DNA of 64,000 bases, taken from Clostridia bacterium. GTDB lineage: Bacteria > Bacillota > Clostridia > Monoglobales > Monoglobaceae. Position 1 is the stretch's first letter, and each line of letters starts with the position of its first letter. The notes beneath the pieces were generated by a model. It saw only the letters and a program-made list of their open reading frames with translations. It was not told where the DNA came from and made no database searches. Made by a program: the position numbers and the translations under genes. Of the stretch, positions 21,257 to 39,531 are shown in pieces. The DNA is taken from positions 6,417-70,416 of the forward strand of contig JAZNBG010000035.1 of assembly GCA_045586925.1 (NCBI GenBank). Reading direction: 5' to 3'.

Positions 21257-22648
21257 ATGTTTATAGGCAGAGAAAGAGAGCTTGAAGCTCTGAATAAGCT
21301 TTATAAATCAAATAAATTTGAATTTGCGGTTATCTATGGCAGACGCCGCGTTGGTAAAACTGCGCTCATAAATGAGTTTATAGATAACAAAAAAGCCATA
21401 TATTTTATGGGTGTTGAAAGCAATGCAAAGCAGAATCTTGAAAACTTCTCAAAAAGCATTATGGAGTTTGCAAGTGGTATTGAAACGGAATCCTCTTTCC
21501 TTTCGTTCCAGGCGGCGTTAGAGTATGTATTCAAGCTTGCGGAAAACGAAAGAATCATTCTTGCTATTGATGAATACCCTTATGTGGCTCGTTCATCAAA
21601 AAGCCTTGCATCTACTTTACAACTTCTAATTGATAAATATAAAGATACATCAAAATTGATGCTTATTCTCTGTGGTTCTTCTATGTCCTATATAGAAGAC
21701 CATGTGCTTGCATATAAAGCGCCTCTTTATGGCAGAAGAACAGCACAAATGAAACTTTTGCCATTTGACTTTGAGGAAACATGCAGATATTTCAAAAATC
21801 TATCTGATGAAGATAAAGCACTTATTTATGGCGTTGCAGGTGGCACACCGCAGTACCTTTTGCAGATGGACGATAAATTAAGCGTTGAAGACAATATAAA
21901 AAACACATACTTAAATCCAATTTCATTCTTGTATGAGGAACCAACTAATCTTTTAAAACAAGAAGTGCGTGAACCGGCTATTTACACTGCGATCATTACA
22001 GCTATTGCAACTGGCTCATCAAGAATGTCAGAGATTTCAAGTAAAGTTGGCGAAGATACAAATGTATGTGCAACTTATATTAAAAACTTGATTAATCTTG
22101 GCATTGTTCAGAAAGAAACACCGTATGGTGAAAAGGCATCTCGTAAGTCAGTTTACTCCATTGAGGACAATATGTTCCGCTTCTGGTATCGCTTTGTTCT
22201 TGAAAACAACTCAATCATTGCACGTGGTGCTGCTGATTTGGTTTACAAAAGAATTGAACCACATTTTTCTAACTATATGGGTAAGGTTTTTGAAGAAATT
22301 TGTAAACAGTATCTTTGGAAACAACTTCTTTCCGGTAACTGCCCTGTAGAGTTTACCTCTCTCGGCCGCTGGTGGGGTAATGATCCGAAAGAAAAGAGCC
22401 AAACTGAAATTGATATTATGGGAGAACAGGATAAAAACACAGCTCTCTTTGCAGAATGTAAGTGGACTAACGAAAAGGTTGACCTCGGTGTTTTAGAAAC
22501 ACTTATAAAACGAGGTAATTTGTTCTCATATAAAACAAAGCATTATTACCTGTTCTCAAAATCAGGATTTACAAAAGGTTGTATTGATAAGGCTAACGAG
22601 ATGAGTAATGTAAGTTTGATAGAGTTTGCGGATATGATGGAGGTATAG
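21257..22648 (+). CDS. AAA+ ATPase (Arch_ATPase type) with a C-terminal DUF234 nuclease-like domain
   Basis: The opening MFIGRERELEAL and Walker A GRRRVGKTAL, plus Walker B LAIDEYPY. The C-terminus EIDIMGEQDKNTALFAECKW resembles a PD-(D/E)xK motif. Confidence 0.65.
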   Translation: MFIGRERELEALNKLYKSNKFEFAVIYGRRRVGKTALINEFIDNKKAIYFMGVESNAKQNLENFSKSIMEFASGIETESSFLSFQAALEYVFKLAENERIILAIDEYPYVARSSKSLASTLQLLIDKYKDTSKLMLILCGSSMSYIEDHVLAYKAPLYGRRTAQMKLLPFDFEETCRYFKNLSDEDKALIYGVAGGTPQYLLQMDDKLSVEDNIKNTYLNPISFLYEEPTNLLKQEVREPAIYTAIITAIATGSSRMSEISSKVGEDTNVCATYIKNLINLGIVQKETPYGEKASRKSVYSIEDNMFRFWYRFVLENNSIIARGAADLVYKRIEPHFSNYMGKVFEEICKQYLWKQLLSGNCPVEFTSLGRWWGNDPKEKSQTEIDIMGEQDKNTALFAECKWTNEKVDLGVLETLIKRGNLFSYKTKHYYLFSKSGFTKGCIDKANEMSNVSLIEFADMMEV

Positions 22649-22649
22649 T

Positions 22650-24737
22650 ATGGCTAAGAAAAAGAATAAACATGAAGCATTGTCTGTTGGAAGATTAATT
22701 AACGAAGTTTTAGTCGATCAGCTAGGAATCCCATTTCGAAACATAGTTAATGATACAACTTTTTCAGATTTTACAGGTTCTAAAAGACCAGATATTTTAA
22801 TAGGAAATTTTGAATATACTGGATCAAACAATGAACAATATATAAAAAATCTTGTTGCATATGCAGAAGCAAAAGACATTACATGCAAAGTGGATGATAC
22901 TGAGTGGAAAGATGCGGTAAATCAAGGTAAAGAAAAGGCTGCAAAATTAGGATTACCATTTTTCGGTGTAACAAATTGTAAAACAACATATTTTTACAAT
23001 TTAAAAACCGGAAATAGAATTTCTTTAAACGGTAATGTCATCTATGAATTTCAGACATTGGATGTTTTTAGAATAATAAAAAAGCAATTAACCGAAAAAC
23101 CAAATGTTGATGATATAAAAATAGGTATAGATTCACTATCCTCTGTTTCAGAAGCTGTTTTCAACAAAAAACTTTGGGAGCTAAAAGAAGAATATCGTGC
23201 GATAGATTTCGAAAATAATACACAAAAAATAGATTTTACTGTAGGAATGATTGCGTTAGAATATTATGAAGAAAAAGCTGAGATAGATGGAACTAAAGAT
23301 AATTCTATGCAGTATTGGTCTACATGTAAGGCGATGATTCCCAATCCATATACATATGAAAACTCAAACACAATAACAACGATTTTAGTAACATATATAG
23401 ATAGACTTACTGGCGAAGAGTCGGAGTTTAAAGAATTTTCTCCGCTTTTAAAGAAGGTAAAGGAATTAATAAGCGGTCAGAAACCTATGATTAATTCTAA
23501 ACGTTTGCAATCTATATATTTTATTATTGATTCTATGCGACCTCTGCATGGTACGGGCTTTGACTTGTTCGGTGCAGTGTATGAAAATTTTGCAAACACA
23601 AAAGAGAAGAAGGATTTTGGTGAGTATTTTACAAGGCGACATTATGCACATGTTTTTGCGGAGTTATTGTTGCAGAAAGAAGATATTTTTAATTCCGAAT
23701 ATAAATTTTCTATTTTAGACCCAGCTTGTGGAACTGGCGGAATGCTTACAGAAAGTTTTAAGGTTTTGAAAAACAACTATGAATCTTCGGGTACATTTGA
23801 TCAAGAAGCACAAACTTTTTTGTCCGAAGAGTGCTTTTATGGAATAGATGTAAGAGGAGAAAATATTTCAAGAACCCGTTTAAATATGTTTTTGGTTGGT
23901 GATGGGCACACAAACATGCACTCTGATGACTCATTAAACCCAACAACAAAAACTGGGAAGAAATTTTTGAATAAAAAATATAAATATATCATAACAAACC
24001 CTCCTTATGGACCGGGTACAGAATTAGCAAACACAGATAGTATAAACTCTTATAGGTTCGAAATAGCGTTTATCTGTAGAATTATAGATCTCCTAGAAAG
24101 AAATGGTCAAGCGTGTATAATCACCCCTGATGGCATTTTGGAAAACCCTTCTTTGAAAAAGTTTCGAAATGAGATTTTGCAAACATGTGAAATATATGCA
24201 ATAGTTTCTTTACCCAAGTTTGCTTTTGCACCTTATACAAAAGAAAAAACATACGCATTATTCATTAGAAAACTACATGATAGAGCGTCCTCGGAGCAAA
24301 CCAATAAAAAATTGCCTACTGGGAAATTCCAATCAACTCCAATTTGGATGTATATCATTGATAACGATGGCTTTGCTAATTCTGATAAGAGATTCCCTAC
24401 TAGACTTAGAGATTCAAGTCAAAGATGGCAGCATGATGAGGTTTCGGGTTATGCTGATAGCGAAGGTATAGAAAGAAAAAGTATTCTTGAACAGCGATGG
24501 TTAAATTTTGACGATACAGCTACGGGTGGAACATTGTGGATTGATGAAGATGGCATTGAAGTAAAAATGAGAAAAGGTGGCTTTGTACAAATTGACTCTA
24601 TTCGAAATAATGATTTTTTGACTTTACTTCCAGAATATTATCTAAGACCATATGAACCTAAGTTTATAACAGAGGAACAATTTAATGAAAGTATGGATAA
24701 TATTGAACGTGAGATAAAAGAGTTTTTTGGACTGTAG
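22650..24737 (+). CDS. Fused restriction endonuclease / N6-adenine methyltransferase (BcgI-A-like, type IIB/IIG)
   Basis: N-terminal PD...ExK candidate (RPDILI ... AYAEAKD). Methyltransferase motif I LDPACGTGGML and motif IV ITNPPYG. No HsdR gene nearby. Confidence 0.6.
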   Translation: MAKKKNKHEALSVGRLINEVLVDQLGIPFRNIVNDTTFSDFTGSKRPDILIGNFEYTGSNNEQYIKNLVAYAEAKDITCKVDDTEWKDAVNQGKEKAAKLGLPFFGVTNCKTTYFYNLKTGNRISLNGNVIYEFQTLDVFRIIKKQLTEKPNVDDIKIGIDSLSSVSEAVFNKKLWELKEEYRAIDFENNTQKIDFTVGMIALEYYEEKAEIDGTKDNSMQYWSTCKAMIPNPYTYENSNTITTILVTYIDRLTGEESEFKEFSPLLKKVKELISGQKPMINSKRLQSIYFIIDSMRPLHGTGFDLFGAVYENFANTKEKKDFGEYFTRRHYAHVFAELLLQKEDIFNSEYKFSILDPACGTGGMLTESFKVLKNNYESSGTFDQEAQTFLSEECFYGIDVRGENISRTRLNMFLVGDGHTNMHSDDSLNPTTKTGKKFLNKKYKYIITNPPYGPGTELANTDSINSYRFEIAFICRIIDLLERNGQACIITPDGILENPSLKKFRNEILQTCEIYAIVSLPKFAFAPYTKEKTYALFIRKLHDRASSEQTNKKLPTGKFQSTPIWMYIIDNDGFANSDKRFPTRLRDSSQRWQHDEVSGYADSEGIERKSILEQRWLNFDDTATGGTLWIDEDGIEVKMRKGGFVQIDSIRNNDFLTLLPEYYLRPYEPKFITEEQFNESMDNIEREIKEFFGL

Positions 24738-24746
24738 GAGGAATAA

Positions 24747-25901
24747 ATGAAATATCAAGTAAAAGATTATCCTATTTGTGATGCTATCTCTTGCATGAGT
24801 GGAAATTCTGGTTTAACAGAGGAATTTATATATAGTACGACACAGATAAAGGGTAAAAGGTATATAGTTTTATCCAGTGCTTTAGAAGAGGAAACAATGA
24901 TGGGCGAAGTTCCGATGTGTACTTTAAACGATAAACCAATTAAAGTCTTTGAAAATAAGGAAGGGCTACTGGTTGCCAGAAATGGCAGAGCCGGGACAAC
25001 AAGATATTTAACCCCAGGGCGATATACAATTAATGATCATGCATATATCCTTTCGGTTAAAAAAGGTTGTCCATATAAAATTGATCTGAGATGGTTGGCT
25101 ATTCAATATAAAACTGAATTTCTTTCATATTCATCAGCTTCAGATAATGGCACATGGAACAAAACTGGCTTTTTTAAAAATGTTACAATAGACGTTCCTG
25201 ATATTGATGAGCAGATACGAATCGTTAATATGGTAGAAAAGGCACAACAAACTATAGAAAAGATAAAAATAATTAAGAAGGATTTGCTTAAAGCATTTGA
25301 ACGCATAATTTCTGTCGAATATTCTAAATATGTTAAACGTAATATACCAATTAATGATGTTTTAGATTGTATGAGTGGCAATTCGGGATTAACATCCGAA
25401 TTCATATATAGCACTTTACATAAGCCAGGTAAAAGATTCAAAGTTTTGTCTGGAGCAACACAAGAAGAGAATTTATTAGGAGAAATCCCCAAATGTGCAA
25501 TAGACGATAAAATGATTAAAACTTTTGAAGATAAAGAAGGTCTCCTAGTTGTTAGAAAAGGGAAAGCAGGTGCTACAAAGTTTCTGCCAAAGGGTAACTA
25601 TACAATAAATGATGATGCATATATCTTGTCTGTAAAGCCGGACTTTGAAAAGTTGGTTGATATTAGGTGGATAAAGATTCATTGTAAAACAGACTTTATG
25701 AATTATTCATCATCTTCGGACAATGGTACATGGAACAAAACAGGCTTTTTTAAAAATGTTACAATAGACATTCCAGCGTTGGAAGAACAAAAACGTGTTG
25801 CAGCAACATATGAGAAGGCCGAAAAGTATTTTGAAAAAATACAAAAAATCGAAAAGCAACTAACAGAATTGTTGGATAAAAGGCTCTGTTCAGAATTGTA
25901 A
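24747..25901 (+). CDS. HsdS-like specificity subunit with two homologous target-recognition domains
   Basis: The two halves (aa ~10-190 and ~200-384) align throughout, for example CMSGNSGLTEEFIYST / CMSGNSGLTSEFIYST and SDNGTWNKTGFFKNVTID in both. Confidence 0.75.
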   Translation: MKYQVKDYPICDAISCMSGNSGLTEEFIYSTTQIKGKRYIVLSSALEEETMMGEVPMCTLNDKPIKVFENKEGLLVARNGRAGTTRYLTPGRYTINDHAYILSVKKGCPYKIDLRWLAIQYKTEFLSYSSASDNGTWNKTGFFKNVTIDVPDIDEQIRIVNMVEKAQQTIEKIKIIKKDLLKAFERIISVEYSKYVKRNIPINDVLDCMSGNSGLTSEFIYSTLHKPGKRFKVLSGATQEENLLGEIPKCAIDDKMIKTFEDKEGLLVVRKGKAGATKFLPKGNYTINDDAYILSVKPDFEKLVDIRWIKIHCKTDFMNYSSSSDNGTWNKTGFFKNVTIDIPALEEQKRVAATYEKAEKYFEKIQKIEKQLTELLDKRLCSEL

Positions 25902-26018
25902 TGATAGTCAGATGTGTGAAGTTTTTTGATTTGCATATACCAAGAGCTCAAAAAAACATAGACTTTAGATAAGATTGATGTTTAAGTGATTGAACTCTTC
26001 TTACAGGAGGGAATATAA

Positions 26019-26660
26019 ATGTGGAGAAAGTTCCGTTGGGATATGTTTGTTACATCATTTATCCCATTATGGTTTTCTATTATTGTTTTTAATCTATGGA
26101 AAGTAGTAGAAATTTCAATTGATGTTTGGGATAAGAAAAGCAAGTACATTGATAACATAGTAAATTGCATTGAAAAAAGCTATGTTGAACTCGGTGTTAT
26201 GCTTGTTGTTATTTTACTTGTTTGGATTAGTATTAGTGGAATTAGCTCTTTTATAAAGGAACGTAAGTCTACAGAAAATAATCCTAAAGGGAAAATAATA
26301 CGAGCAACTAAAGCTAACAAACTTTCTTCTGAGTTTTTGTTAGCATACATACTTCCTATGATAGCTTTTGACTTTGGAGAAATAAAGGATATAGTTTTGT
26401 TTGTTATATACTTTTCTGTATTGGCCTTTTTGTGCATAAGAAACAATAATATTTATACAAATATTCTTTTGGAATTTAAGGGTTATAAAATGTACAACTG
26501 CGATATTGAGTGTTCGGTGCTTGAAAAGAAAAAGATTTATCACGACAGCTTGATAATAAGTGAAGTAGACTTAACTCAGATGGAAGAAAATGAGATACCA
26601 TATTGGGATTTTGACAAATATATTTATATAGCAATAAACGAGGTGGAAGATAGTGAGTAA
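26019..26660 (+). CDS. Four-TM membrane protein, KwaA-like (candidate Kiwa component)
   Basis: 213 aa with 4 predicted TM helices. It overlaps the next gene by 8 nt. Size and architecture match KwaA as I recall it, but no sequence comparison was possible. Confidence 0.35.
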   Translation: MWRKFRWDMFVTSFIPLWFSIIVFNLWKVVEISIDVWDKKSKYIDNIVNCIEKSYVELGVMLVVILLVWISISGISSFIKERKSTENNPKGKIIRATKANKLSSEFLLAYILPMIAFDFGEIKDIVLFVIYFSVLAFLCIRNNNIYTNILLEFKGYKMYNCDIECSVLEKKKIYHDSLIISEVDLTQMEENEIPYWDFDKYIYIAINEVEDSE

Positions 26661-27585
26661 AACCGTACTAAAGACAATATGTGAATGTGGAAAAAATGGT
26701 CAATATTCATGGAGTTTGTTTTTCTTCAAAACAGACAAAAGAAATAAACAGCCTTATAAAATGTTTAAGGTTCGTTTTAAAAACGCTAATTATCTTACTA
26801 CATATGCAGCAAACTTAATTGAGACTGTTGATAAGTTTCAAATTGAACCTATAAGCGATGTCCAGGATTACGATGGTGAGAATTCAAAAGTATCATGTGA
26901 TAAGATTGAATTGTCTAATCAACTAATTAGCGAACAGTGGACCTTATTCACCGAAGCTGTTGCAAGTGCCGCTGATGGTAAAGCCGACGGAAGAATTAAT
27001 GGTTATATATTGTACGGACAATCTTTAAAAGAAGATGACAAGCCTATTACACTTGTTAAAGTGGCAAATCCGATAACAAAGCTTACAAACAAAAAAAGTG
27101 TAATATTCACGACTACTGCAGATGATGAACTGGAATTAATGTCTGATGATGTATGTAGGCTTTATCTTACTACTGACTTTATTGTTTTTGATGGAACCAT
27201 GTATACATTCAACCATACATTTGAAACAATCTTTAATCTTGAGAAAACAATGGCTAAGGTGAAGAATGATGCTATAGAAGAGATATTAAGTACAAATGCT
27301 TTTTCTAATCCTGAAGAATTTAAAGCATTGGCAGGAAAATACAAATCATCACGCACCTTTATAACTCTTAAAAAAGAACGTGTAAATAGAATTAAAGATA
27401 AACGCAGTAGGAAGAAAGTCGCAGAAATGCTCAAACTTCCACTTGGTAGTGATGGAGAGTTTAATATAACAAAACCAGAAGATGCGTCTCTTTTATTGCG
27501 ATATCTGTGTTTTAAAATATTCCAGGATAATGAGACAATGGATGTGCTTGAGGCTAATACTGTAAACAAATTAAATCTTGCATAA
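26653..27585 (+). CDS. Soluble 310-aa protein, KwaB/DUF4868-like (candidate Kiwa component)
   Basis: Translationally coupled to the membrane protein upstream. Size is typical of KwaB. The assignment rests on architecture only. Confidence 0.35.
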   Translation: MSKTVLKTICECGKNGQYSWSLFFFKTDKRNKQPYKMFKVRFKNANYLTTYAANLIETVDKFQIEPISDVQDYDGENSKVSCDKIELSNQLISEQWTLFTEAVASAADGKADGRINGYILYGQSLKEDDKPITLVKVANPITKLTNKKSVIFTTTADDELELMSDDVCRLYLTTDFIVFDGTMYTFNHTFETIFNLEKTMAKVKNDAIEEILSTNAFSNPEEFKALAGKYKSSRTFITLKKERVNRIKDKRSRKKVAEMLKLPLGSDGEFNITKPEDASLLLRYLCFKIFQDNETMDVLEANTVNKLNLA

Positions 27586-28233: not shown

Positions 28234-28908
28234 ATGACATATGGATATGTTAGAGTGTCCTCAAGTGATCAAAATGTAGACAGACAATTAATTGAAATGG
28301 AAGGATTAACAATCCCCGTACAAAATATTTTTATAGATAAACAATCGGGTAAAGACTTTAAGCGCCCACAATATATTAAATTGCTTGAGGTTCTTAAAAA
28401 AGGTGATTTATTATATGTAAAGTCAATAGACCGTTTGGGGCGAAACTATAAAGAAATACTGGAACAATGGCAAATGCTGACTAAAGAAATGGAAGTTGAT
28501 GTTGTTGTAATAGATATGCCACTTTTAGATACACGAACTGCTAAAGATTTGCTCGGTACATTCATAGCGGACTTGGTTTTACAAGTGCTTTCTTTTGTGG
28601 CTCAAAGCGAGCGTGAAAACATAAAGAAACGCCAAGAAGAAGGCATAAAAGCTGCCAGACTTCGTGGCGTTAAATTTGGACGACCTGTTATTCCCGTGCC
28701 GGATAATTTTGAGTTTCTTGTTGAACAATGGGAACATGGGGAAATATCCGCCGATTATGTGGCTCAGAAAAGCGAAATGAGTGAATCAACCTTTTATAGA
28801 AGATTAAAAGAATTAAGGAAAAACACAAAACAAAAATCACTGTCAAATGGTACACTTTTTGACAGTGATTATTTTTTGTTGATATATACTGTTAAAAACA
28901 GATTTTAA
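28234..28908 (+). CDS. Small serine recombinase (resolvase/invertase family)
   Basis: Catalytic N-terminus YGYVRVSSSDQNVDRQ, SIDRLGRN, and a C-terminal HTH (SESTFYRRLKE). The last ~25 codons read through a terminator hairpin. Confidence 0.85.
   Translation: MTYGYVRVSSSDQNVDRQLIEMEGLTIPVQNIFIDKQSGKDFKRPQYIKLLEVLKKGDLLYVKSIDRLGRNYKEILEQWQMLTKEMEVDVVVIDMPLLDTRTAKDLLGTFIADLVLQVLSFVAQSERENIKKRQEEGIKAARLRGVKFGRPVIPVPDNFEFLVEQWEHGEISADYVAQKSEMSESTFYRRLKELRKNTKQKSLSNGTLFDSDYFLLIYTVKNRF
28835..28878 (+). terminator. Rho-independent terminator overlapping the resolvase 3' end
   Basis: 13-bp perfect stem AATCACTGTCAAA / TTTGACAGTGATT followed by ATTTTTTG. Confidence 0.7.
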
Positions 28909-29552: not shown

Positions 29553-29637
29553 ATATACAAATACAACAAATCATTGACAACTTCATTATATTATTTTAAA
29601 GCAGTGGTAGAATATATACATAAAGGAGTTGTCGAAT

Positions 29638-30477
29638 ATGAAAAGAATTACAAACGAATTAATTAAGAAATTCAGAGAATATCTGTTAAGTGAAGAAAAG
29701 GCAGTAGCAACGATAGAAAAGTATATCCACGATGTTCTTGTGTTTATGACTTGGCTTGCAGGAGCAGAGGTTACCAAAATGGCAGTTCTTGAATATAAAC
29801 AGGAACTAACTGAGAAGTATGCTCCCACAAGTGTTAATGCCGCGCTTTCTTCGTTGAATAGTTTCTTTGTTTTCAATGAATGGTACGATTGTAAAGCGAA
29901 AGCTGTGAAAATTCAAAAGCAGATTTTTGCCAATAAAGAGAAGGAATTATCAAAGGCTGAATACGAAAGACTGCTTTTAGCGGCAAAACAAAAGAAAAAT
30001 CAAAGACTTTACTTTCTTATGCAGACGATATGCAGCACCGGGATACGTGTATCTGAGTTGAGATTTATAACAGTTGAAGCTGTTTTAAGAGGACAGGCAC
30101 ATATTAACTGTAAAGGTAAGATGCGGGTTGTTATTCTCACAAATCAACTCTGTAAAATGCTGAAGAACTATATAAAAGATAATAAAATAATAAGTGGCTC
30201 GGTTTTTGTTACTAAAACAGGTAAGCCACTTGATCGTTCTAATATATGGTCGGATTTGAAAAAACTCTGTGAATGTGCGGGAGTAGATAAAGAAAAAGTT
30301 TTTCCACATAATTTTAGGCATTTGTTTGCGCGCACTTATTATACTTTGCAAAAAGATATAGTTCGTCTTGCTGATATCCTCGGTCATTCCAATGTAAACA
30401 CTACAAGGATTTACACAATGGAAAGCGGAGAGATGCATCGCAAGCAATTGCAAAAACTTGGATTACTGATATGTTAA
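29638..30477 (+). CDS. Tyrosine site-specific recombinase (XerC/D-like)
   Basis: SAM-like N-terminal domain. Catalytic residues are in TGIRVSEL (Arg), HNFRHLFA (His-x-x-Arg) and GHSNVNTTRIYT (His, Tyr). ATG 29638 follows AAGGAG. Confidence 0.85.
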   Translation: MKRITNELIKKFREYLLSEEKAVATIEKYIHDVLVFMTWLAGAEVTKMAVLEYKQELTEKYAPTSVNAALSSLNSFFVFNEWYDCKAKAVKIQKQIFANKEKELSKAEYERLLLAAKQKKNQRLYFLMQTICSTGIRVSELRFITVEAVLRGQAHINCKGKMRVVILTNQLCKMLKNYIKDNKIISGSVFVTKTGKPLDRSNIWSDLKKLCECAGVDKEKVFPHNFRHLFARTYYTLQKDIVRLADILGHSNVNTTRIYTMESGEMHRKQLQKLGLLIC

Positions 30478-30486
30478 ATTAAAAAA

Positions 30487-30508
30487 CCACATAATTTCTC
30501 TTATGTGG
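30487..30508 (+). repeat. Left core-type recombination site (8-6-8)
   Basis: CCACATAA-tttctc-TTATGTGG has perfect inverted half-sites around an asymmetric 6-bp spacer. It lies 10 bp after the recombinase stop codon. Confidence 0.6.
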
Positions 30509-30584
30509 TAAAACTGAATGAAGAGTTCCCCAATTTGTGTGTTATGAAATATGCATAACGGCTATTTTAACCCGAAAAAAGAAC

Positions 30585-30644
30585 GCCAATAAGACCAATG
30601 TATTGTGGTATTTTTGCATTGGTCTTATTGGCATTTATTTTTTT
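30585..30644. terminator. Bidirectional rho-independent terminator inside the invertible segment
   Basis: 16-bp perfect stem GCCAATAAGACCAATG / CATTGGTCTTATTGGC, with GAAAAAAGAAC upstream and ATTTATTTTTTT downstream. Confidence 0.8.
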
Positions 30645-30684
30645 GTAGAGTTTCGATGAAATTTTACAAAATTCTCTCAAATCA

Positions 30685-30713
30685 TTGACATTTCGATAAT
30701 AATATGTTACCAT
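30685..30713 (+). promoter_or_regulatory. Promoter inside the invertible segment, currently facing the TetR/T7SS-like operon
   Basis: TTGACA (30685-30690), 17 nt, extended -10 TGtTACCAT (hexamer 30708-30713). Confidence 0.45.
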
Positions 30714-30749
30714 ATTAAAGTATAATTATGTATAGAGCAGTTGTGCGTA

Positions 30750-30771
30750 CCACATAAGAGAAATTATGTTG
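30750..30771 (-). repeat. Right core-type recombination site (8-6-8, inverted)
   Basis: CCACATAA-gagaaa-TTATGTTG. The spacer is the reverse complement of the left site's spacer, so the two sites are in inverted orientation. Confidence 0.6.
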
Positions 30772-30805
30772 TAAGTGGAGTTTATTTTTTTTGAGTAAAA
30801 TTATG

Positions 30806-30819
30806 ACCGACTGGTCGGT
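30806..30819. promoter_or_regulatory. Palindromic operator candidate upstream of the TetR gene
   Basis: ACCGAC-tg-GTCGGT dyad, 29 nt before the TetR start. Confidence 0.35.
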
Positions 30820-30847
30820 ATAGTGTAAACAAAAAGAGGTGTTACTA

Positions 30848-31417
30848 GTGCTTAGCGATGAACAGAGAGAACAGAAAAAGCAAGAATTGCTGGAAAAATG
30901 CTTTGAACTTTTCGTAAAACAAGGATTAGAGAATACCAGTCTGAACGAGTTGGTGGCATACTGCAATGTTCACAAATCAACTATGTATAGCTACTTGGCG
31001 TCAAAAGATGAGATTGTAATCGAATGTGCAAAAATGCATATGCTTGAACTTGATAAGATGTTCAGCAATGTATTTAAAAATCCACCAAATACACTTAAAG
31101 AAGTATTGCAACATGGTTTTGAAAAGATTGTAGAGGAAAAAAGTAAACTAAGGTTTGTATATCAGGTTATATCAAGTCCATTGTACGGAGAACAGGCACA
31201 AAAAGAGTTATCTTCAATTTATATGAAATATGTAGATTATTCTGAACCTATTGCAAAGATGTATAAGGTTGATGAAGCAGAATTTAGGACATGCTTTGTT
31301 TTATTTTTAAGTACAATGCATGACTATTGTATGTGGGGGAATGAATTCCTTGCTAGAGAAAAGTTGGTATACATATATAACAAGGTAACGGAATTAGACA
31401 AAAATAAAGCAAATTAA
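30848..31417 (+). CDS. TetR/AcrR-family transcriptional regulator
   Basis: N-terminal HTH LFVKQGLENTSLNELVAYCNVHKSTMYSYLASKDEI. GTG 30848 lies 8 nt after AGAGG; the ORF-track start at 30839 overlaps the RBS. Confidence 0.8.
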   Translation: MLSDEQREQKKQELLEKCFELFVKQGLENTSLNELVAYCNVHKSTMYSYLASKDEIVIECAKMHMLELDKMFSNVFKNPPNTLKEVLQHGFEKIVEEKSKLRFVYQVISSPLYGEQAQKELSSIYMKYVDYSEPIAKMYKVDEAEFRTCFVLFLSTMHDYCMWGNEFLAREKLVYIYNKVTELDKNKAN

Positions 31418-31432: not shown

Positions 31433-32569
31433 ATGGCTATAATTGATAGAATAAAATATGATGGTCCACAAGATGCTTCGCCATGGTTGATTCACAAATA
31501 TCCAAGTGAAGAATTTGTTTTAGGTTCGCAGTTGATTGTAAATCAGGGACAAGAGGCTTTGTTCTTCAAAGGTGGAGAAGCACTCGATTTATTTGGTGCG
31601 GGAACTCACACTTTACATACGGGAAATCTACCCTTACTGAAAAAAATAGTTAATTTACCGTTTGGTGGAGAAACACCGTTCTCAGCAGAAATTTATTATA
31701 TTAATAAAACTTCAAAATTAGATATGAATTGGGGTACTGCAAACCCATTTCAGCTTGAAGATCCCAAATATGGTCTTATATTATCTATAAGATCACACGG
31801 CAAGTATGGATTGCGTATTACGGATTCAAGAATGTTTGTTAATGAGCTTGTTGGCGCTATTCCTAATGGTGCAACAGTAAACTATCCGTTTGTTGCAAGT
31901 TATTTTAGTGGTTTGTTAACTACATATGTAAAAACTGTTATTTCTAATTTTATGATAAAACAAAAGATTTCTTTTCTTGAGGTAACGGCGTACTTAAGGG
32001 AATTATCGGAAGAATGCCAAAAAGAGATTTCAAACGAGTTCGATAAATATGGTGTTGAAATACAAAATTTCTTTATTGAAGCTATTTCACCTCCAAAAGA
32101 AGAATTTGAAAAGCTTCGCACATATAAAGAAGAGTTGTCTTTGGGAAATGATTTCTATAAACAACGTCGTTCTTTTGATGTATTAGAAAAATTGGCAGAT
32201 AACCCCAATGCAGGTGGAATGGCTAATGCAGGAATCGGATTGGGTATGGGCTTAGGGGTCGCTCCTAATATGGGAAATATTTTTGGTGGAATTGGTGAAA
32301 ATACCATGAATATCAATGGTCAGACAGGCGCGCAAGGAAAAGTATGCCCTAAATGTTCTGCCCAGGTTGCTGAAGGATTAAAGTTCTGTGGTAATTGTGG
32401 GGAGAGGATTAGCAATTCGTTGATATGTCCATCATGCAATCATGAAAATCCTGAAAATACTAAGTTCTGTGGCAACTGTGGTCAAAAACTTGTAAACAAA
32501 TGCAGCGAATGTGGAACAGAGAACGATTTAGGTCAAAAATTCTGCGGTAATTGTGGAAATAAACTGTAA
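31433..32569 (+). CDS. SPFH/Band-7 domain protein with C-terminal triple zinc ribbon (YdjI-like)
   Basis: The N-terminal ~230 aa resemble B. subtilis YdjI (virion-core-like SPFH). A Gly/Met-rich linker is followed by CPKCSAQV..CGNCG, CPSCNHEN..CGNCG and CSECGTEN..CGNCG. Confidence 0.7.
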   Translation: MAIIDRIKYDGPQDASPWLIHKYPSEEFVLGSQLIVNQGQEALFFKGGEALDLFGAGTHTLHTGNLPLLKKIVNLPFGGETPFSAEIYYINKTSKLDMNWGTANPFQLEDPKYGLILSIRSHGKYGLRITDSRMFVNELVGAIPNGATVNYPFVASYFSGLLTTYVKTVISNFMIKQKISFLEVTAYLRELSEECQKEISNEFDKYGVEIQNFFIEAISPPKEEFEKLRTYKEELSLGNDFYKQRRSFDVLEKLADNPNAGGMANAGIGLGMGLGVAPNMGNIFGGIGENTMNINGQTGAQGKVCPKCSAQVAEGLKFCGNCGERISNSLICPSCNHENPENTKFCGNCGQKLVNKCSECGTENDLGQKFCGNCGNKL

Positions 32570-32589
32570 AAGAGGTGAAAAGACAGAAT

Positions 32590-35500
32590 ATGGGCAAATA
32601 TATAGCATATTTTTACATAGACAATCAATTAATGCAATTTGATCTCGACTTGTTGCTAAATAATTGTGTTGATAATTATTTAGGTGAATCAATTCTTCCG
32701 GTAGGAAGTAAGCAACTATTTCCCATTAAAACAGAGAATAAAAAATATTACCTTTATGGGAATTTTAGCAATTGGAAAATTGTTTGTAACGGAAGTGAAG
32801 TCGGAGAAAAAGTTGAAATATCACATGGAAGTTACATCAATTTTTCATCTAAGAAAAGCTCCTATTCTGTTTTGATATCAGAAACAGCTAACTTTAGTAT
32901 ATATAATAATTGTTTGGAAATTCAAAAAAATCAGAATATCTTTATAGGTAGGGCTCCGGAGAGCAACATTGTAATAGATATTAACGATAGTGTATCAAGA
33001 AAACATGCAGCAATAAGATTAGATGCATCAGGCAATGGCTTTGTTGAGGATTTGTCACGTAAAACAGGTGTTTTCCTAAATGGAAAAAGAATTGTTTCAA
33101 GCGAAATAAAATGTGGGGACATTATTCATATAATGGGTGTGTCTATATGTTTTATGGGGACATTTCTTGTTGTTCCTAAAAATATTGTTACAAACGGGAT
33201 GAAAGAGGTCAAGTCTTTTAATGTTGCGCAGCCAACAGATAAAGAGCTTGAAGATACTTATGCAAGGACACCAAGAATATTAAAGTCATTGGATAGAAAC
33301 AAAATAATTATAGATGCACCTACACAGCCTCAAAAATCCAAACAACAACCTTTTATTCTGGTTGCGGGACCTTCTGCGACAATGGCATTAGGTATGATGG
33401 CTAGTTTTGGAGTAACTTTAGCTAATGCACTGAATGGTGGAAACATATCTTCAACTATTACCGGTGGTGTAATGGTTATAAGTATGTTGTTGGGTTCTTT
33501 AATGTGGCCTTCTTTACTTAGAAATTACACTAAAAGACAAGAAATCGCAAATGAAAAGTATAGAGTAGAGAAATATAAATACTATTTGTCGGAAAAAGAA
33601 GCAGAAATAAGAAAATCCTACGAAAGAAATTGCAGAATATGGAATGAAAATCTTTTGCCAGCACCCGATAAATTGTCTCAAATTGTTTTTGAACGAGGTA
33701 TAAATCTTTGGGAAAGAACATTTACAGATGAGGACTTTCTGCAGGTTAGACTTGGAATAGGTGCCAAATTATTTGAAACAGAAATCCAACATCCAAATAA
33801 AGGCTTTACATTGCATGATGACGCATTGATAGATGAAGCAATAAACTTAGCAAACAAATATAAAATGTTAGAAAATGTTCCAATTAGCGTATCATTAATA
33901 AACCAAAGAACAGTTGGAATAGTTGGAGAAAGTGAAAAAATACATAATACACTTAGATGTATGATTCTAAACACGGTTGCACTTCACTCACCTGAGGATG
34001 TAAAGATTTGTGTTATTTGTAATGAACTTCAAATTGAGCAGGTAGAGTGGATAAAAGATTTGCCTCATTGTTGGGATTCTGCTAAAACAACACGATATTT
34101 TGCAACTAATAATATGGAAGCACAAAGACTGCTCAATGATATGGATGAGAAAATTCAAGAAAGAGAAGAATTGATTGACAAAGATGCAATCAGAACCCCT
34201 CATACCATAGTTGTTGTTTTGGATGAAAAAGTAGTTGAAAATATACCTTTTTATAGATACTTAATTGATTCCAAAAACAATGTAGGCATATCCTCTATTT
34301 TTATTGCAGAACACTTTAATAGAATACCTAAAGAGTGTACTGCAATAATTCAAAACGAAAAAGATATATGCGGAATTTATACAAAGAATGAAAACGATAA
34401 TAGATTTGTTTGTTTCAAATCTGATGAGTTTAAACTGACGGATGCTAAAAAAATCAGTCAGAGTATGTCTGAGATTCCGGTTAAGGTTGAGAAAACAAAA
34501 CTTAGTGTTCCTAACCGTGTATCATTTTTGGATATGTATAAGGTGGGAAATATTGAGAATCTTTCAATTGAACAAAAATGGGCAAATAATATGTCAGACA
34601 AAACGCTTGCTGTTCCTATTGGAATAAAAGCAGGCGGAGAATTGTTCTGTTTGGATATACACGAAAAACACCATGGTTGTCACGGATTAGTTGCCGGAAT
34701 GACAGGCTCGGGTAAAAGTGAATTTTTACAGGCATTTATATTATCAGCATTAATTAATTTTAGTCCTAATGAAATTGCATTTGTACTGGTGGACTTTAAA
34801 GGTGGAGATATGGCTCGACCATTTTTGAAGGTTCCGCATCTTTCTGCAACTATATCAAATCTATCCGAAAATATTTTGTATAGAGCATTGATTTCTTTGG
34901 AGGCAGAAGTAAAATCAAGACAAAAAATATTTAATGAAGCCGCATCATTGTTGGGCATTGATAAAATTGATATTAATTCATACCATAAATATTTTAAGGA
35001 AGGTAGATTAACATTACCATTACCACACTTAGTAATTGTAATAGATGAGTTTGCACAATTGAAATCTCAACAACCTGAATTCATGGCTAAACTTGTTGAA
35101 ATAGCTCAGGTCGGAAGAAGTTTAGGAATTCATCTGATATTAGCAACGCAAAAACCGAGCGGTGTTGTTGATCCGCAAATATGGAGCAACTCAAGATTTA
35201 AAGTATGTTTGAAAGTGTTGGATAAGCAGGATAGTACGGAAATGATAAACAGACCGGATGCTGCTTTAATTAAATCTCCTGGACGTGCTTATGTTCAGGT
35301 CGGCTATGATGAAATTTTCGAACAGTTACAGTCAGGTTATAGCGGTGCTGATTATGTTGAACAAAAAGAGTATACAGATGATGAAGATGTAACAATAAAA
35401 CTTATAGATTCTGCTGCTATGCCAATTAGAAGCGCTCGTAGTATATCAGGAAATCTTAAGAGTGGTAAGACACAGTTAGAAGAAACTATAAATAAGATTG

Positions 35501-37239
35501 TTGAAATCGCTGATGAAAAGGGATTAAGTGTAAAGCCTTTGTGGTTGGAGCCACTAAAGGAAACAATATATCTTACAGAATGTGTTGATAAGTTATACAC
35601 AGATTCTTTCGAAATTTGTTGGGATCAAGATTTAGATATCTCAACTACATTGGGAATCATCGATATAATTGAAACACAGAAACAGATACCTTTAAATATT
35701 TCATTGCCGCAGAGCGGACATATTGCTATTTATGGTTCTTCTGGAACTGGAAAGACTACATTGTTACAAACAATTATTTTCTCGCTGGCAACAAAATATT
35801 CACCGGAACTGTTAAACATTTTTGCTTTTGATTTTGGCGGACGCAATTTAGGGAATTTATCGCTTCTTCCGCATTGCGTTAACGTAGCTTTTGGCGATGA
35901 AGAGGACAAAATTTCATATATGTTTGAGCAGATACTTGAATGTATCGAATCAAGAAAAGTTTTGTTTGCAAAAAATAACTGCGCTACATATGAATCGTAT
36001 TTAGCAACAACAAAAAATAAACTTCCTGCAGTTCTTTTGGTGCTGGATAACTATGCTATATTCAGAGAAAAAATGTTCAAGAATGAAGATGATTTAGTTA
36101 GAATTGTTGCTAATGCAAAGGCGTACGGAATATATTTGATCGTTACAGGAAATAGCAAGAATGCAATTTATTACAAAGTTTCTGAACACATATCAAATAA
36201 TATTACTTTGCGTATGAATGATAAAATGAATTACCGTGATATATTAAATGTTTCTATACCTATTGAACCTGATAATATCAAAGGAAGAGGGTTGACAGTC
36301 TTTAATAAAAAAGCGGTAGAAATTCAGGCAGCACTTCCGTTGGAAGCAGAGAACGAGGCTGACAGAGCTGAAAAGCTGAACAAAATATACACTGCTATGT
36401 CACAGGCATATAACGGAACCAATGTGGCTAGTGTTTACTCTTCTTCAACTGAAAATAGTAAATCTAATATTTCAGAAGAAAATAGTACAATTAAAACATC
36501 TGTTATTTCAACAAGGAAAGTTCCGTCAACACTTCCTATTGTTAATGCTGATGATCATACAATTGTTTGTGGTTCTTCTGTTGTAAGCGGTCAGCTTCAA
36601 GGGTTTGAAATGCGTAATACTACAAATGTATTTATAGGTGTTAATGGTTCTGAATATCCAAATCGATTGCTTGAAAGAATTATTAATTTAAACAATGCTG
36701 CATTTTACGATATTTGCTCCTCATCATCGTTAGAAGGTGAATTTATTACATCGGTAAATACGGAATCTGAAATTCATGAAATGCTTCAAAATCTCGTTTA
36801 TGAAGTTAATGATCGAGAGAGTGAACTTCAAATGTTGCAGGCTGCGAATGTCGATGATTCTGAAGTATACGGATATATGCAAAAATATAAGAGGATTTTC
36901 TTGTTGATAAGAAGTTTCTCTAAGTTCTATGATGAGATAAGTGATGATGATTTAAAATTGTTGTTGACAATGTTGAAGAAGCAACGTCATCTAGGTATAT
37001 ATATTCTCACCATAGATGATATTGAAAGTATAGAACCATATTGTGATACAGCTTTATACATTGAATTAATAAAAACCGAAAAAGGCGTTGTTCTTGGTGG
37101 CAATATTAGTGATAAACAGGCGGCTCGATTGTGTAAACAATTCTCTGAAATACCTGTTGCAGAAAGAAACAAGAAACTGTCTGATAACAATGCATTTATG
37201 TATAATGATGCAAAATGGTCAGTAATTGAAATCAATTAA
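32590..37239 (+). CDS. essC: FHA-domain FtsK/SpoIIIE-family ATPase, EssC/EccC-like type VII secretion translocase
   Basis: FHA motif IGRAPESNIVI..SVSRKHAAI..TGVFLNGKRI, then two TM helices. P-loop 1 is GMTGSGKSE with VIDEF. P-loop 2 is GSSGTGKTT with LVLDNY. A third ATPase-like region lacks a P-loop lysine. ATG 32590 was chosen; GTG 32575 is an alternative. Confidence 0.85.
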   Translation: MGKYIAYFYIDNQLMQFDLDLLLNNCVDNYLGESILPVGSKQLFPIKTENKKYYLYGNFSNWKIVCNGSEVGEKVEISHGSYINFSSKKSSYSVLISETANFSIYNNCLEIQKNQNIFIGRAPESNIVIDINDSVSRKHAAIRLDASGNGFVEDLSRKTGVFLNGKRIVSSEIKCGDIIHIMGVSICFMGTFLVVPKNIVTNGMKEVKSFNVAQPTDKELEDTYARTPRILKSLDRNKIIIDAPTQPQKSKQQPFILVAGPSATMALGMMASFGVTLANALNGGNISSTITGGVMVISMLLGSLMWPSLLRNYTKRQEIANEKYRVEKYKYYLSEKEAEIRKSYERNCRIWNENLLPAPDKLSQIVFERGINLWERTFTDEDFLQVRLGIGAKLFETEIQHPNKGFTLHDDALIDEAINLANKYKMLENVPISVSLINQRTVGIVGESEKIHNTLRCMILNTVALHSPEDVKICVICNELQIEQVEWIKDLPHCWDSAKTTRYFATNNMEAQRLLNDMDEKIQEREELIDKDAIRTPHTIVVVLDEKVVENIPFYRYLIDSKNNVGISSIFIAEHFNRIPKECTAIIQNEKDICGIYTKNENDNRFVCFKSDEFKLTDAKKISQSMSEIPVKVEKTKLSVPNRVSFLDMYKVGNIENLSIEQKWANNMSDKTLAVPIGIKAGGELFCLDIHEKHHGCHGLVAGMTGSGKSEFLQAFILSALINFSPNEIAFVLVDFKGGDMARPFLKVPHLSATISNLSENILYRALISLEAEVKSRQKIFNEAASLLGIDKIDINSYHKYFKEGRLTLPLPHLVIVIDEFAQLKSQQPEFMAKLVEIAQVGRSLGIHLILATQKPSGVVDPQIWSNSRFKVCLKVLDKQDSTEMINRPDAALIKSPGRAYVQVGYDEIFEQLQSGYSGADYVEQKEYTDDEDVTIKLIDSAAMPIRSARSISGNLKSGKTQLEETINKIVEIADEKGLSVKPLWLEPLKETIYLTECVDKLYTDSFEICWDQDLDISTTLGIIDIIETQKQIPLNISLPQSGHIAIYGSSGTGKTTLLQTIIFSLATKYSPELLNIFAFDFGGRNLGNLSLLPHCVNVAFGDEEDKISYMFEQILECIESRKVLFAKNNCATYESYLATTKNKLPAVLLVLDNYAIFREKMFKNEDDLVRIVANAKAYGIYLIVTGNSKNAIYYKVSEHISNNITLRMNDKMNYRDILNVSIPIEPDNIKGRGLTVFNKKAVEIQAALPLEAENEADRAEKLNKIYTAMSQAYNGTNVASVYSSSTENSKSNISEENSTIKTSVISTRKVPSTLPIVNADDHTIVCGSSVVSGQLQGFEMRNTTNVFIGVNGSEYPNRLLERIINLNNAAFYDICSSSSLEGEFITSVNTESEIHEMLQNLVYEVNDRESELQMLQAANVDDSEVYGYMQKYKRIFLLIRSFSKFYDEISDDDLKLLLTMLKKQRHLGIYILTIDDIESIEPYCDTALYIELIKTEKGVVLGGNISDKQAARLCKQFSEIPVAERNKKLSDNNAFMYNDAKWSVIEIN

Positions 37240-37255
37240 ATAGGAGGTGTATAAT

Positions 37256-38044
37256 ATGAATTTTTCTGACAAATCTTTACATTTAACATATGATGAGTTT
37301 TATGCATTAATGTGTTTGTTAGGTGCAAAAAGTGTTCAAGGAACTTTTGTTGAAAATCATAATAATATATCTCCAAATGATTTCGAGAATATATGGGCAG
37401 TCTGCGAAAAATCACTGATTTCTAAAGGATATATGACATTAGACGGTGAGGATTTGCAGCTGGATATTAGTTTATATAGCATTATAACAGCATGTGTGAA
37501 TGCCGAAAGAAAATATAGTGTACAATTGTCAAAAGATAAATCCAATATTATTGATACAGTTTTTTATGATGGAAATAAGGCAATGGTATGTATCAATAAT
37601 TGTGATGAAAAGAAAGAGGTTTATTTAAGTTATTGCAATAAAAAGAAATCTTTTGATAATGTGGTTAAGGAAATTCCGGATATTACACAAAATATGCTTA
37701 ACGAAAAATCTGCTGAAATTACCCTTTCACAGCAGGAATATTTCACACTCATGTCTAGTGCTAATTTGGGGGACTATACCAAGGCTCGAAATCTATTCCC
37801 TGATGATATGGAAGAAGAATATTTAATGGATTTGATAAACACATTAAAAAATTCTTATGGGTTACTATCGGTTAATGAATTTGAAGATGAGGAAATTAGC
37901 ACTTACAGCATTTTATTTGGAAAAGAATCTTTATGGGCTATTTATGCACAGGATGAAGAAACAATATCCTTTAAATTGGTATCCAAAACTGATTTAGAAG
38001 ATAGCCTCGCGCAAACTTTTGGTTATGACGGAGGTGGCAAATAA
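37256..38044 (+). CDS. Soluble acidic protein of unknown function (possible EspG-like secretion chaperone)
   Basis: No TM segments. The N-terminal LTYDEFYALMCLLGAK loosely recalls the EspG N-terminus. Its position between the essC-like and yukD-like genes is suggestive. ATG 37256 follows AGGAGG. Confidence 0.25.
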   Translation: MNFSDKSLHLTYDEFYALMCLLGAKSVQGTFVENHNNISPNDFENIWAVCEKSLISKGYMTLDGEDLQLDISLYSIITACVNAERKYSVQLSKDKSNIIDTVFYDGNKAMVCINNCDEKKEVYLSYCNKKKSFDNVVKEIPDITQNMLNEKSAEITLSQQEYFTLMSSANLGDYTKARNLFPDDMEEEYLMDLINTLKNSYGLLSVNEFEDEEISTYSILFGKESLWAIYAQDEETISFKLVSKTDLEDSLAQTFGYDGGGK

Positions 38045-38045
38045 A

Positions 38046-38303
38046 ATGACTGAAAAAATTACGTTATCGGTATGTGTACTAGGAATTAATAAAAATTGTG
38101 ATTTTTCTGTTCCGACAAATATGTCAGTTAGAGAAGCAATTAAGTTAATGAAAAAGGTGATAACCGAAGAATATTGGGGTAACTCACCTATGCCAAAGAG
38201 CAGAATGAATTTGATGAAGTTGTCTGATCTTGAGGTATTAAATGATTCATTGAGTTTTGCCCAACTCGGTATTTCAAGTGGAGAAAGATTGATTTTTGTT
38301 TAA
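38046..38303 (+). CDS. YukD/EsaB-like ubiquitin-fold T7SS protein
   Basis: 85 aa. The pattern CDFSVPTNMSVREAIKLM ... LGISSGERLIFV parallels B. subtilis YukD (which ends CGITNGDRLEIL). ATG 38046 follows GGAGG. Confidence 0.65.
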   Translation: MTEKITLSVCVLGINKNCDFSVPTNMSVREAIKLMKKVITEEYWGNSPMPKSRMNLMKLSDLEVLNDSLSFAQLGISSGERLIFV

Positions 38304-38317
38304 GGAGTGTAAAAAAT

Positions 38318-38614
38318 ATGGCAACGTTTAGAATTAACTATTCAAGAGTTATTTCGCAAGCTAACTCTATGAATAATTTAAGTGGCGATCTTTCTTCTGA
38401 AATACGTAGGTTAGAAAATATGTTAAGCGAAGCTCGAAGTAATTGGAAAGGTCCAGCATCAGAAACATTTCAAAGACAATTAAGTAATTTAATAGGAGAT
38501 ATGAAGAACACAAAAAGTAAAATGTCAAGTGTTTCAAGTACAATTAAGAGTGTCGCAAGAAGGATACAAGCAGAAGATGAGCGAGCTGCTGAAAGAGCAA
38601 AAAAACTGAAATAA
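38318..38614 (+). CDS. WXG100-family protein (paralogue 1)
   Basis: 98-aa helical hairpin with a central W-K-G (SNWKGPASETF). Confidence 0.7.
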   Translation: MATFRINYSRVISQANSMNNLSGDLSSEIRRLENMLSEARSNWKGPASETFQRQLSNLIGDMKNTKSKMSSVSSTIKSVARRIQAEDERAAERAKKLK

Positions 38615-38632
38615 GAATTTGGAGGTGGAAAT

Positions 38633-38743
38633 ATGGAAGCTGCGGCTGCAACACCGATTAATTCAGTAGCAAGTACAGTGGTACCTATAGCGGTTGCTGT
38701 GCTTGTTGGAGTGGCAATTTTCGCTTTTTTAAGGCGAAAGTAA
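38633..38743 (+). CDS. 36-aa single-pass membrane peptide (not in the ORF track)
   Basis: ATG 38633 lies 6 nt after GGAGGTGG. It reads MEAAAATPINSVASTVVPIAVAVLVGVAIFAFLRRK: a hydrophobic helix followed by an RRK anchor. Confidence 0.5.
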   Translation: MEAAAATPINSVASTVVPIAVAVLVGVAIFAFLRRK

Positions 38744-38809
38744 AGATTAACTTAGGGTTATAAAATAATTATTATAACAAAATTATTTTTCGAAAGGAGC
38801 AAATTTATT

Positions 38810-39121
38810 ATGGCAAACGCATGGTCAGTAACCACAGAAAGACTTACATCTTCTGCAAACATTTTGGAGGAAAAAGTCGCAACGTACAATTCAGAATGGG
38901 GCAAACTTTACACAGAGGTTCAGAATTTAAAATCCTCACAGTGGCAGGGTATCGCAAGTGATGCATTCAACGCAAAACTTGAGTCCTACAAAAATGATTT
39001 TGAAGAATTAGCAAAAGTATTGAACAGCTATAAAGATTTCTTGAAATCAGCAGCAGAAAGATATGAGAAAACAGAAGAAGCAGTAAAAGATGCAGCTGGA
39101 AATCTTAATGCCGGAATATAA
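38810..39121 (+). CDS. WXG100-family protein (paralogue 2)
   Basis: 103 aa with central W-Q-G (SSQWQGIASDAF) and a C-terminal YEKTE (YxxxE) motif. Confidence 0.8.
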   Translation: MANAWSVTTERLTSSANILEEKVATYNSEWGKLYTEVQNLKSSQWQGIASDAFNAKLESYKNDFEELAKVLNSYKDFLKSAAERYEKTEEAVKDAAGNLNAGI

Positions 39122-39145
39122 ATAAAATTTTAGGAGGATTTTAAA

Positions 39146-39445: not shown

Positions 39446-39461
39446 TTTGAAGTTTGATAAA

Positions 39462-39506: not shown

Positions 39507-39531
39507 AAGTTTGAATTAAGGAGGTGTAAAG

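Follow-up and report, generated by a model that had tools for sequence, protein, structure and literature searches.

We analysed a 64,000-nt stretch of contig JAZNBG010000035.1 from a Clostridia bacterium (hereafter the window; all coordinates are positions in it), with a focus on the intergenic region between a gene for an Xer-like tyrosine recombinase and a TetR-family regulator gene that heads a putative operon for a type VII secretion system (T7SS). This region holds a 263-bp element at 30486-30772, in which a predicted terminator and a predicted promoter are enclosed by a left (IRL) and a right (IRR) inverted repeat. L numbers below designate related loci on assembled contigs. The features of the region are as follows.

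29638-30477, + strand: Xer-like tyrosine recombinase, 279 amino acids (aa), the presumed invertase (Pfam Phage_integrase, 5e-28, with an N-terminal SAM-like domain)
30486-30510, no strand: IRL, with the core CCACATAA-TTTCTC-TTATGTGG at 30487-30508
30511-30747, no strand: interior of the predicted invertible segment, 237 bp; L001 and L044 carry it reverse-complemented with respect to their flanks
30575-30648, no strand: predicted two-way intrinsic terminator, hairpin arms at 30575-30600 and 30617-30642
30685-30713, + strand: predicted sigma-70-type promoter, TTGACA (30685-30690), 17 nt, TACCAT (30708-30713), with an extended -10 TG, facing the TetR gene
30748-30772, no strand: IRR, with the core CCACATAA-GAGAAA-TTATGTTG at 30750-30771
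30806-30819, no strand: candidate TetR operator, palindrome ACCGAC-TG-GTCGGT, outside the switch
30848-31417, + strand: TetR-family regulator, first gene of the operon (Pfam TetR_N; ribosome-binding site AGAGGTG 5' of a GTG start)

A repeat search returned IRL and IRR as a 25-nt inverted repeat with one mismatch (96% complementary), the copies lying 237 nt apart and their inverted core sites being spaced by 263 bp. An earlier note, made from the sequence alone, had placed an 8-6-8 site just after the recombinase stop codon and a second site with an inverted spacer further downstream. Both were found: the left site lies at 30487-30508, with the stop codon ending at 30477, and the right site at 30750-30771, whose spacer, GAGAAA, reads as the exact reverse complement of TTTCTC in IRL. 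The 21-bp perfect inverted repeat described in the same note is likewise present, except that its perfect portion is one base longer than claimed (22 nt; 30489-30510 / 30748-30769). The sole mismatch of IRR to IRL, a G-to-T change, sits in the outer arm. When up to two mismatches were allowed, the 8-6-8 pattern occurred twice in the 64 kb, at IRL and IRR, against 0.05 occurrences expected, and none of 100 shuffled sequences contained two matches. Both site sequences stayed unchanged after simulated inversion of the interior, for which the predicted OFF-state junctions are TTATGTGGTACGCACAACTGC (left) and CATTCAGTTTTACCACATAAGAG (right), or, over longer spans, CCACATAATTTCTCTTATGTGGTACGCACAACTGCTC (left) and CATTCAGTTTTACCACATAAGAGAAATTATGTTG (right).

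We compared the sites with those of related loci. The arms were conserved as [AC]CACA[TG]AA / TT[AC]TGT[GT]G in 14 distinct site pairs, among which the spacer took ten forms (TTTCTC, TTCAAA, TTTTGA, TATAAA, TCGAAA, TCGATA, TGTTGA, TGGTGA, TGACGA, and TCGTGA); an eleventh, TTCGGT, was found in the L048-55 group. Every spacer was asymmetric, and the left and right spacers were exact reverse complements in 14/14 pairs. Comparison of IRL with the reverse-complemented IRR in these pairs placed all mismatches at outer arm positions and none in the spacer or inner arm. Where the arms varied, the variation hit all four half-sites jointly, as in the L059 group (CCACAGAA/TTCTGTGG) and in L058 and L066 (CAACATAA/TTATGTTG). 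This pattern of four equivalent half-sites and identical overlaps is what a single tyrosine recombinase requires. Tyrosine recombinases need overlap identity between the partner sites, as in lox, FRT, and dif, and a 6-bp asymmetric overlap flanked by symmetric arms fits their sites (Xer, Cre, and Flp).

The adjacent recombinase carries the full catalytic set (R137, K161, H224, R227, H250, and Y259), according to an alignment with XerD (1a0p) and a check of the individual positions; judged from these residues and from its adjacency, a linked recombinase with an apparently intact active site is present. The solved structures nearest to it were those of XerA, XerC-like, and XerD proteins. It nevertheless scored under every Xer equivalog cut-off of NCBIfam (XerA, 138 vs 220; XerD, 130 vs 330; XerC, 107 vs 335), under that of the FimB/FimE model NF007370 (27.9 bits; cut-off, 221), and under that of the integron integrase TIGR02249 (53.5; cut-off, 265), only two sites being present in the window. 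No exact-protein match to the 279-aa or 282-aa form of the window recombinase was found. Its homologues belong to a family in which at least 7,999 protein clusters scored E <= 1e-30; of the 120 listed, nearly all are 279 aa long. Searches of phages and plasmids returned distant homologues only, which share 40-54% identity with it and sit on large secondary replicons. Recombinase homologues adjoin an inverted site pair in more than 25 loci, with 0-40 nt between their stop codon and IRL; the stop codon sometimes falls within the repeat. Since the tyrosine recombinase always adjoins IRL while the upstream genes vary, it, rather than the small resolvase encoded upstream, is the probable invertase of the segment.

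For the interior, the earlier note had described a terminator with a 16-bp stem able to work in either orientation and a TTGACA-17-TACCAT promoter with a TG extension, aimed at the TetR gene and the operon behind it. The terminator stem measured 18-19 bp rather than 16, and a U-run lies 3' of the stem on both strands, so that the structure is predicted to be usable either way; the predicted folding energy is -33.2 kcal/mol for the + strand and -30.4 kcal/mol for the - strand, with z about -7.5. The promoter was recovered as described, at 30685-30713. An internal promoter predicted to drive the flanking gene in one orientation is thus present at the level of consensus, and inspection by eye revealed no second promoter with workable spacing between IRR and the TetR gene. 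L040, L041, and L047 also have the promoter element CAAATCATTGAC(A/T)...-10, which runs in the opposite direction in L044.

The sequence CAAATCATTGACA is present both at 29568-29580, 5' of the recombinase gene, and at 30679-30691, in the -35 region of the internal promoter. Its upstream copy is kept in L040-L044. The pair may reflect a regulator site in common or simply a promoter duplication.

Related loci on assembled contigs carried the interior in both orientations. L001, an 839-bp metagenome contig, encodes a TetR identical to that of the window and is 97% identical to and collinear with the window from IRR onward, and its interior matches the opposite strand only. Window positions 30486-30628 align to L001 positions 141-1, and the terminator arm farther from the promoter in the window adjoins IRR in L001. 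Among the loci closest in recombinase sequence, L040 and L041 (95% identical) have the same orientation as the window (ON), and L042 and L043, which encode the same 95% identical protein as L040/L041, stop precisely at the inner boundary of IRL (...TTATGTGGTAC). A sample that contains both orientations causes assemblers to break at this point, and we read the ends of L042 and L043 in this way. In L044 (91% identical), the interior is inverted, and its promoter, CAAATCATTGACT-17-TATAAT, is aimed at the recombinase.

Orientation polymorphism was also found further from the window. Six human-gut contigs with recombinases in the 47-57% aa identity group represent one locus in opposite orientations (L059, L060, L062, and L067 vs L061 and L063). 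The flanks of these six contigs match, save that L062 and L067 show scattered single-base differences and indels. The interior of L061/L063 is the reverse complement of that of L059/L060/L067, except where homopolymer runs differ by single bases in a few places. The human-gut metagenome contigs L048-L055 contain three sites and show at least four arrangements, including loss of a 42-nt piece. Both orientations occur naturally, therefore, in homologous and near-identical loci: in L001 and L044 relative to the window, within L059-63, and within L048-55. A look-up of the SPFH protein encoded in the operon returned three contigs, each beginning inside or at the TetR gene, which were uninformative on orientation. 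The three-site layout of L048-L055, with two direct copies 34-42 nt apart and one inverted copy, is that of a small shufflon-like variant, and L083, from Pusillibacter faecalis MM59, has the same layout with diverged sites.

In most relatives that were scored, the best sigma-70-type match lay ~57-62 nt from one interior end and faced outward. It faced away from the recombinase in the window, L040/41, L047, L050/51/53/54, L056, and L059/60/67, and towards the recombinase in L044, L046, L008, L024, L048/52/55, and L061/63; the match was weak or ambiguous in L021, L029, L045, and L058. This split indicates that both states are common in assembled consensus sequences.

Cultured carriers comprised Evtepia gabavorous KLE1738, Monoglobus pectinilyticus, and P. 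faecalis MM59. In the isolate assembly of E. gabavorous KLE1738, contig L030 terminates at the left repeat, and the 669-bp contig L013 spans the last part of the recombinase gene and the switch plus a short flank. Many recombinase homologues lie on contigs of only ~1 kb, several of which end 15-34 nt past the stop codon, or 78 nt past it in L033 (examples are L042, L043, L049, L030, and L033). The switches seem to break metagenome assemblies systematically; their sites account for the breaks at these loci, and such switches are probably under-reported because of them.

Because related loci hold both orientations, we read the segment as a phase-variation switch, and we assign a probability of roughly 0.85 to the 263-bp element (30486-30772) being an invertible promoter switch (inverton). 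The flips of L001 and L044, the polymorphism of L059-63, the co-variation of the spacers, and the intact recombinase adjacent to IRL all support the invertible-promoter interpretation put forward in the earlier note. Its proposal that the present orientation is ON also agrees with our data, as the promoter is directed into the TetR gene and the T7SS operon, that is, in the permissive orientation.

In the mechanism that we propose, the recombinase would bind the four nearly identical half-sites (CCACATAA / TTATGTGG) of the two 8-6-8 cores, and strand exchange would take place inside the asymmetric 6-bp overlap (TTTCTC / GAGAAA). As the overlaps are inverted relative to each other, recombination would flip the 237-bp interior. 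In the ON state, the internal promoter would read across IRR into the TetR, SPFH, and type VIIb secretion (T7SSb) genes, while the internal terminator would halt the recombinase transcript before it reached the promoter; TetR, acting at 30806-30819, would probably form a second, conventional layer of control. In this state, the IRR hairpin in the leader folds only weakly (-7.3 kcal/mol, z -0.8), and no U-run adjoins it. In the OFF state, the promoter would be turned towards the 3' end of the recombinase gene, and transcription from it would run into the IRL hairpin and U-run, where it may terminate; on the - strand, IRL forms a predicted 9-bp hairpin (-11 kcal/mol) with UUUUUU directly after it. 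The two-way terminator would then block read-through from the recombinase gene into the operon.

Several points weigh against this interpretation. The evidence on orientation comes from assembled contigs of related loci, and the window assembly itself shows the ON state only. The interior of L001 is only ~77-81% identical to that of the window, against 97% outside it, which makes L001 a related allele and not the same clone flipped. The promoter, the terminator, and the operator are predictions from consensus or folding energy. All of the 10 loci fetched for the homologue P0072 (75% identical; on 149 contigs) were in a single orientation, OFF, with a promoter (TTGACA-17-TACAAT, read by eye) facing the recombinase; some family members may therefore switch rarely or be strongly biased. 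Finally, the arm mismatch of IRR (TTATGTTG) could reduce activity.

The last two points would also be expected if the element were a member of the switch family that is now fixed, locked ON in this strain, for example by the G-to-T change in the outer IRR arm or by a recombinase that is not expressed. We consider this improbable. The arm variant is found in L040 and L041 as well, and comparable outer-arm variants occur in loci seen flipped (L044). Moreover, the spacers are perfectly matched, the open reading frame and the catalytic residues of the recombinase are intact, and contigs with 95% identical recombinases break at IRL.

Alternatively, the sites could serve chiefly for cargo exchange or integration, in the manner of an integron or a mobile element, with inversions as a by-product. 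Homology between the window and L044 spans the resolvase gene to IRL, and the genes past IRR are entirely different; the genes of L040 diverge from those of the window after TetR; and the cargo of the family is highly variable, relatives neighbouring RepA_N and resolvase genes. However, each locus has an inverted pair around a promoter-plus-terminator unit whose promoter position is mostly kept, which is the design of an expression switch, and neither arrays of further sites (only two occur in the window) nor integron integrase scores anywhere near the cut-off were found. We therefore regard this explanation as quite unlikely as a substitute for an expression switch; cargo exchange may instead be an additional evolutionary role.

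The chance that the invertase is the small serine recombinase encoded two genes upstream (28234-28908) appears slight. This protein has a resolvase/invertase domain, matches the Mpi master-invertase model weakly, and is kept with the module in L040, L042, and L044; its 49.7 bits are, however, far under the Mpi cut-off of 272. Beside the switch of the P0072 loci, no small resolvase was called, the nearest resolvase-domain gene being that of a large serine recombinase ~1.7 kb upstream, in L074 and L075 only, whereas the tyrosine recombinase is always within ~40 nt of IRL. The symmetric arms and 6-bp asymmetric overlap of the sites are also of the kind that suits tyrosine recombinases. A serine invertase system of the Hin/Gin/Mpi type was rejected for want of consistent linkage to the repeats. 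It is least credible of all that the palindromes are TetR operators or plain transcript hairpins in a static repeat. Each site is indeed palindromic, as TetR operators often are, and the next gene downstream encodes a TetR. The recombinase is, however, followed by the same sites where the cargo is TetR-free (S8 peptidase, SPFH, DUF4379, methyltransferase, or response regulator), both orientations are observed, and the stretch from IRR to the TetR gene has a palindrome of its own, which differs between TetR types.

The ACCGAC-TG-GTCGGT palindrome at 30806-30819 is kept in L001, L040, and L041, and L002 and L047, which have diverged TetR cargo, contain a different palindrome in the same position. 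It is a candidate operator of the downstream TetR, and since the palindrome tracks the TetR type, ON is probably a permissive state that is still gated by TetR. A T8 tract (30781-30792) lies 10-13 nt past IRR in the window, L001, L002, L040, and L047, in association with TetR cargo only; it could be a weak attenuator or a terminator remnant.

Beyond the TetR gene, the following features were identified.

31433-50720, + strand: co-directional, tightly packed genes for an SPFH-zinc-ribbon protein, EssC, a protein with a weak YukD-like match, three WXG100 proteins, DUF4176, PP2C, two Ser/Thr kinases, and TPR and zinc-ribbon proteins
32575-37239, + strand: EssC (TIGR03928, 1019.8 bits vs a cut-off of 778.4; NCBIfam)
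38318-39445, + strand: three WXG100 proteins
50753-50790, + strand: probable operon-end terminator, a 13-bp stem followed by TTTTTT

Downstream of the switch, no strong + strand terminator was seen ahead of 50753-50781, and this, together with the tight packing of the genes, makes an operon of ~20 kb plausible. Both an EssC ATPase and WXG100 substrates, which together mark a type VIIb system, are encoded in it, and EsaA, EssA, and EssB were not identified. Judged by this gene content, the type VIIb secretion system encoded in the ~20-kb operon is a real one. If our reading of the switch is correct, a gut spore-former toggles a whole locus for type VII secretion and kinases by DNA inversion. 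Our literature search found no phase-variable T7SS under promoter inversion, and a literature search for the 8-6-8 site sequence found nothing relevant.

We next compared the segment with known systems. Of those named in the earlier note, Escherichia coli fimS proved a good parallel, with its promoter inside the segment, and the Clostridioides difficile cwpV and flagellar switches a looser one, as the promoter is outside there. In C. difficile cwpV and flgB, the promoter lies outside the invertible segment and orientation acts on termination. Like fimS, which is controlled by FimB/FimE, the window has an invertible segment of ~0.3 kb with inverted repeats that carries the promoter of a downstream surface or secretion operon, and this segment is directly preceded by a tyrosine recombinase gene that reads towards it. 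Unlike fimS, the window has one recombinase instead of two, and this recombinase falls outside the FimB/FimE family; its sites are dif-like 8-6-8 palindromes, as opposed to the 9-bp repeats of fimS, and a two-way terminator is predicted inside.

The window resembles the RecV switches of C. difficile (cwpV, flgB, cmrRST, and pdcB) in that these are short intergenic inversions by a tyrosine recombinase at surface or signalling loci in Clostridia (PMC5903667, PMC5386303). The architecture differs: the gene for RecV is not located at its switches, and RecV acts on several unrelated repeats (PMC5903667), whereas the window recombinase is adjacent and the promoter is inside. The repeats also appear unrelated in sequence to those of the window. 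Passages of one further report concern Rho in the orientation-dependent termination of a C. difficile switch (PMC7446863). According to the 2025 hCom2 survey of a defined gut community, inverton group 139 contains 33 invertons, 32 of them from Clostridia, in 17 strains, with repeats of 14-26 nt and ~230-240 bp from start to start; nearly all adjoin a tyrosine recombinase group (invertase group 35), and orientation shifts were measured from reads (PMC11892184). The window switch probably belongs to the family of this group, with which it agrees in size, taxon, and gene neighbourhood. The 8-6-8 anatomy, spacer co-variation, terminator, and T7SS cargo did not appear in the passages of that survey that were searched (PMC11892184).

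The recombinase itself is closest to Xer proteins, which links the system to Xer/dif (XerC/D, XerA, XerH, and XerS). The inner arm bases of the window sites (...CATAA / TTATG...) around the 6-bp overlap resemble those of dif, which in E. coli is GGTGCGCATAA-TGTATA-TTATGTTAAAT, and the symmetric arms suggest a single-recombinase system like that of XerH, XerS, or XerA. In contrast to Xer/dif, the window has two inverted sites 263 bp apart in a mobile island in place of one terminus site, and the outcome would be inversion instead of resolution. Xer dimer resolution via a single dif site was rejected as an assignment, the two inverted sites flanking a promoter inside the island. In Bacteroides (Tsr-type) and in Mycoplasma penetrans (mpl), a tyrosine recombinase also lies beside short invertible promoters of variable surface genes, with many paralogous switches per clade. 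These systems, likened here by description only, differ from the window in phylum, promoter type, and repeat motifs. Recombinase-adjacent invertible promoters in Bacteroidota are described in passages of the hCom2 survey as well (PMC11892184).

The mechanism class is therefore familiar, and the recombinase family is very large, little studied, and Clostridial. The sites have conserved arms and matching asymmetric 6-bp spacers, and they lie no more than ~40 nt from the recombinase stop codon; together, these features make them recognisable from sequence alone and provide a rule to find and orient such switches in metagenomes. As a speculative extension, in which our confidence is low, the recombinase and switch might form a portable phase-variation cassette of gut Clostridia, in which the lineage-specific 6-bp overlaps would act as barcodes that prevent cross-recombination of coexisting paralogous switches with near-identical arms and IRR would act as the point of cargo swapping, similar to integron-like capture; the cargo here would be a complete T7SSb antagonism locus in an element that interrupts spoVAD.

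The switch and the operon lie in a low-GC island (0.30-0.38 vs ~0.42 in the flanks) at about 19167-55696 that interrupts spoVAD. The 5' spoVAD fragment (18519-19166) corresponds to positions 1-207 of the SpoVAD profile and the 3' fragment (55697-56104) to positions 201-328, and the split gene sits between spoVAC and a spoVAE-like gene. Judging by the spoVA genes, the source bacterium forms spores. The island junctions have only a short CCTG core in common, and a large serine recombinase is encoded at the right end of the island (53898-55580). The island looks like a skin-like intervening element of a sporulation gene, ~36.5 kb in size, that carries the switch and the T7SS.

A module composed of the resolvase, a YpsA-like SLOG protein, the recombinase, and the switch is shared with elements that have RepA_N and DUF5697 genes (the Logan contigs L040, L042, and L044). 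Past IRR, the cargo of the L040/L042/L044 elements is a 1688-aa surface protein, or an S8 peptidase with a 2009-aa CARDB protein. Upstream of the switch in the window, a defence cluster (21242-27585) encodes an ATPase/DUF234 protein, an N6 methyltransferase and a specificity subunit, and a putative Kiwa pair, which was assigned from a KwaB Pfam match at 26653-27585 and a preceding 213-aa protein without a match. Near the right end of the island, a second tyrosine recombinase, apparently unrelated to the first, is encoded at 52675-53535. Upstream of it, an A-rich 16-nt inverted repeat with copies 357 nt apart (51790-52178) was found, which is probably due to chance.

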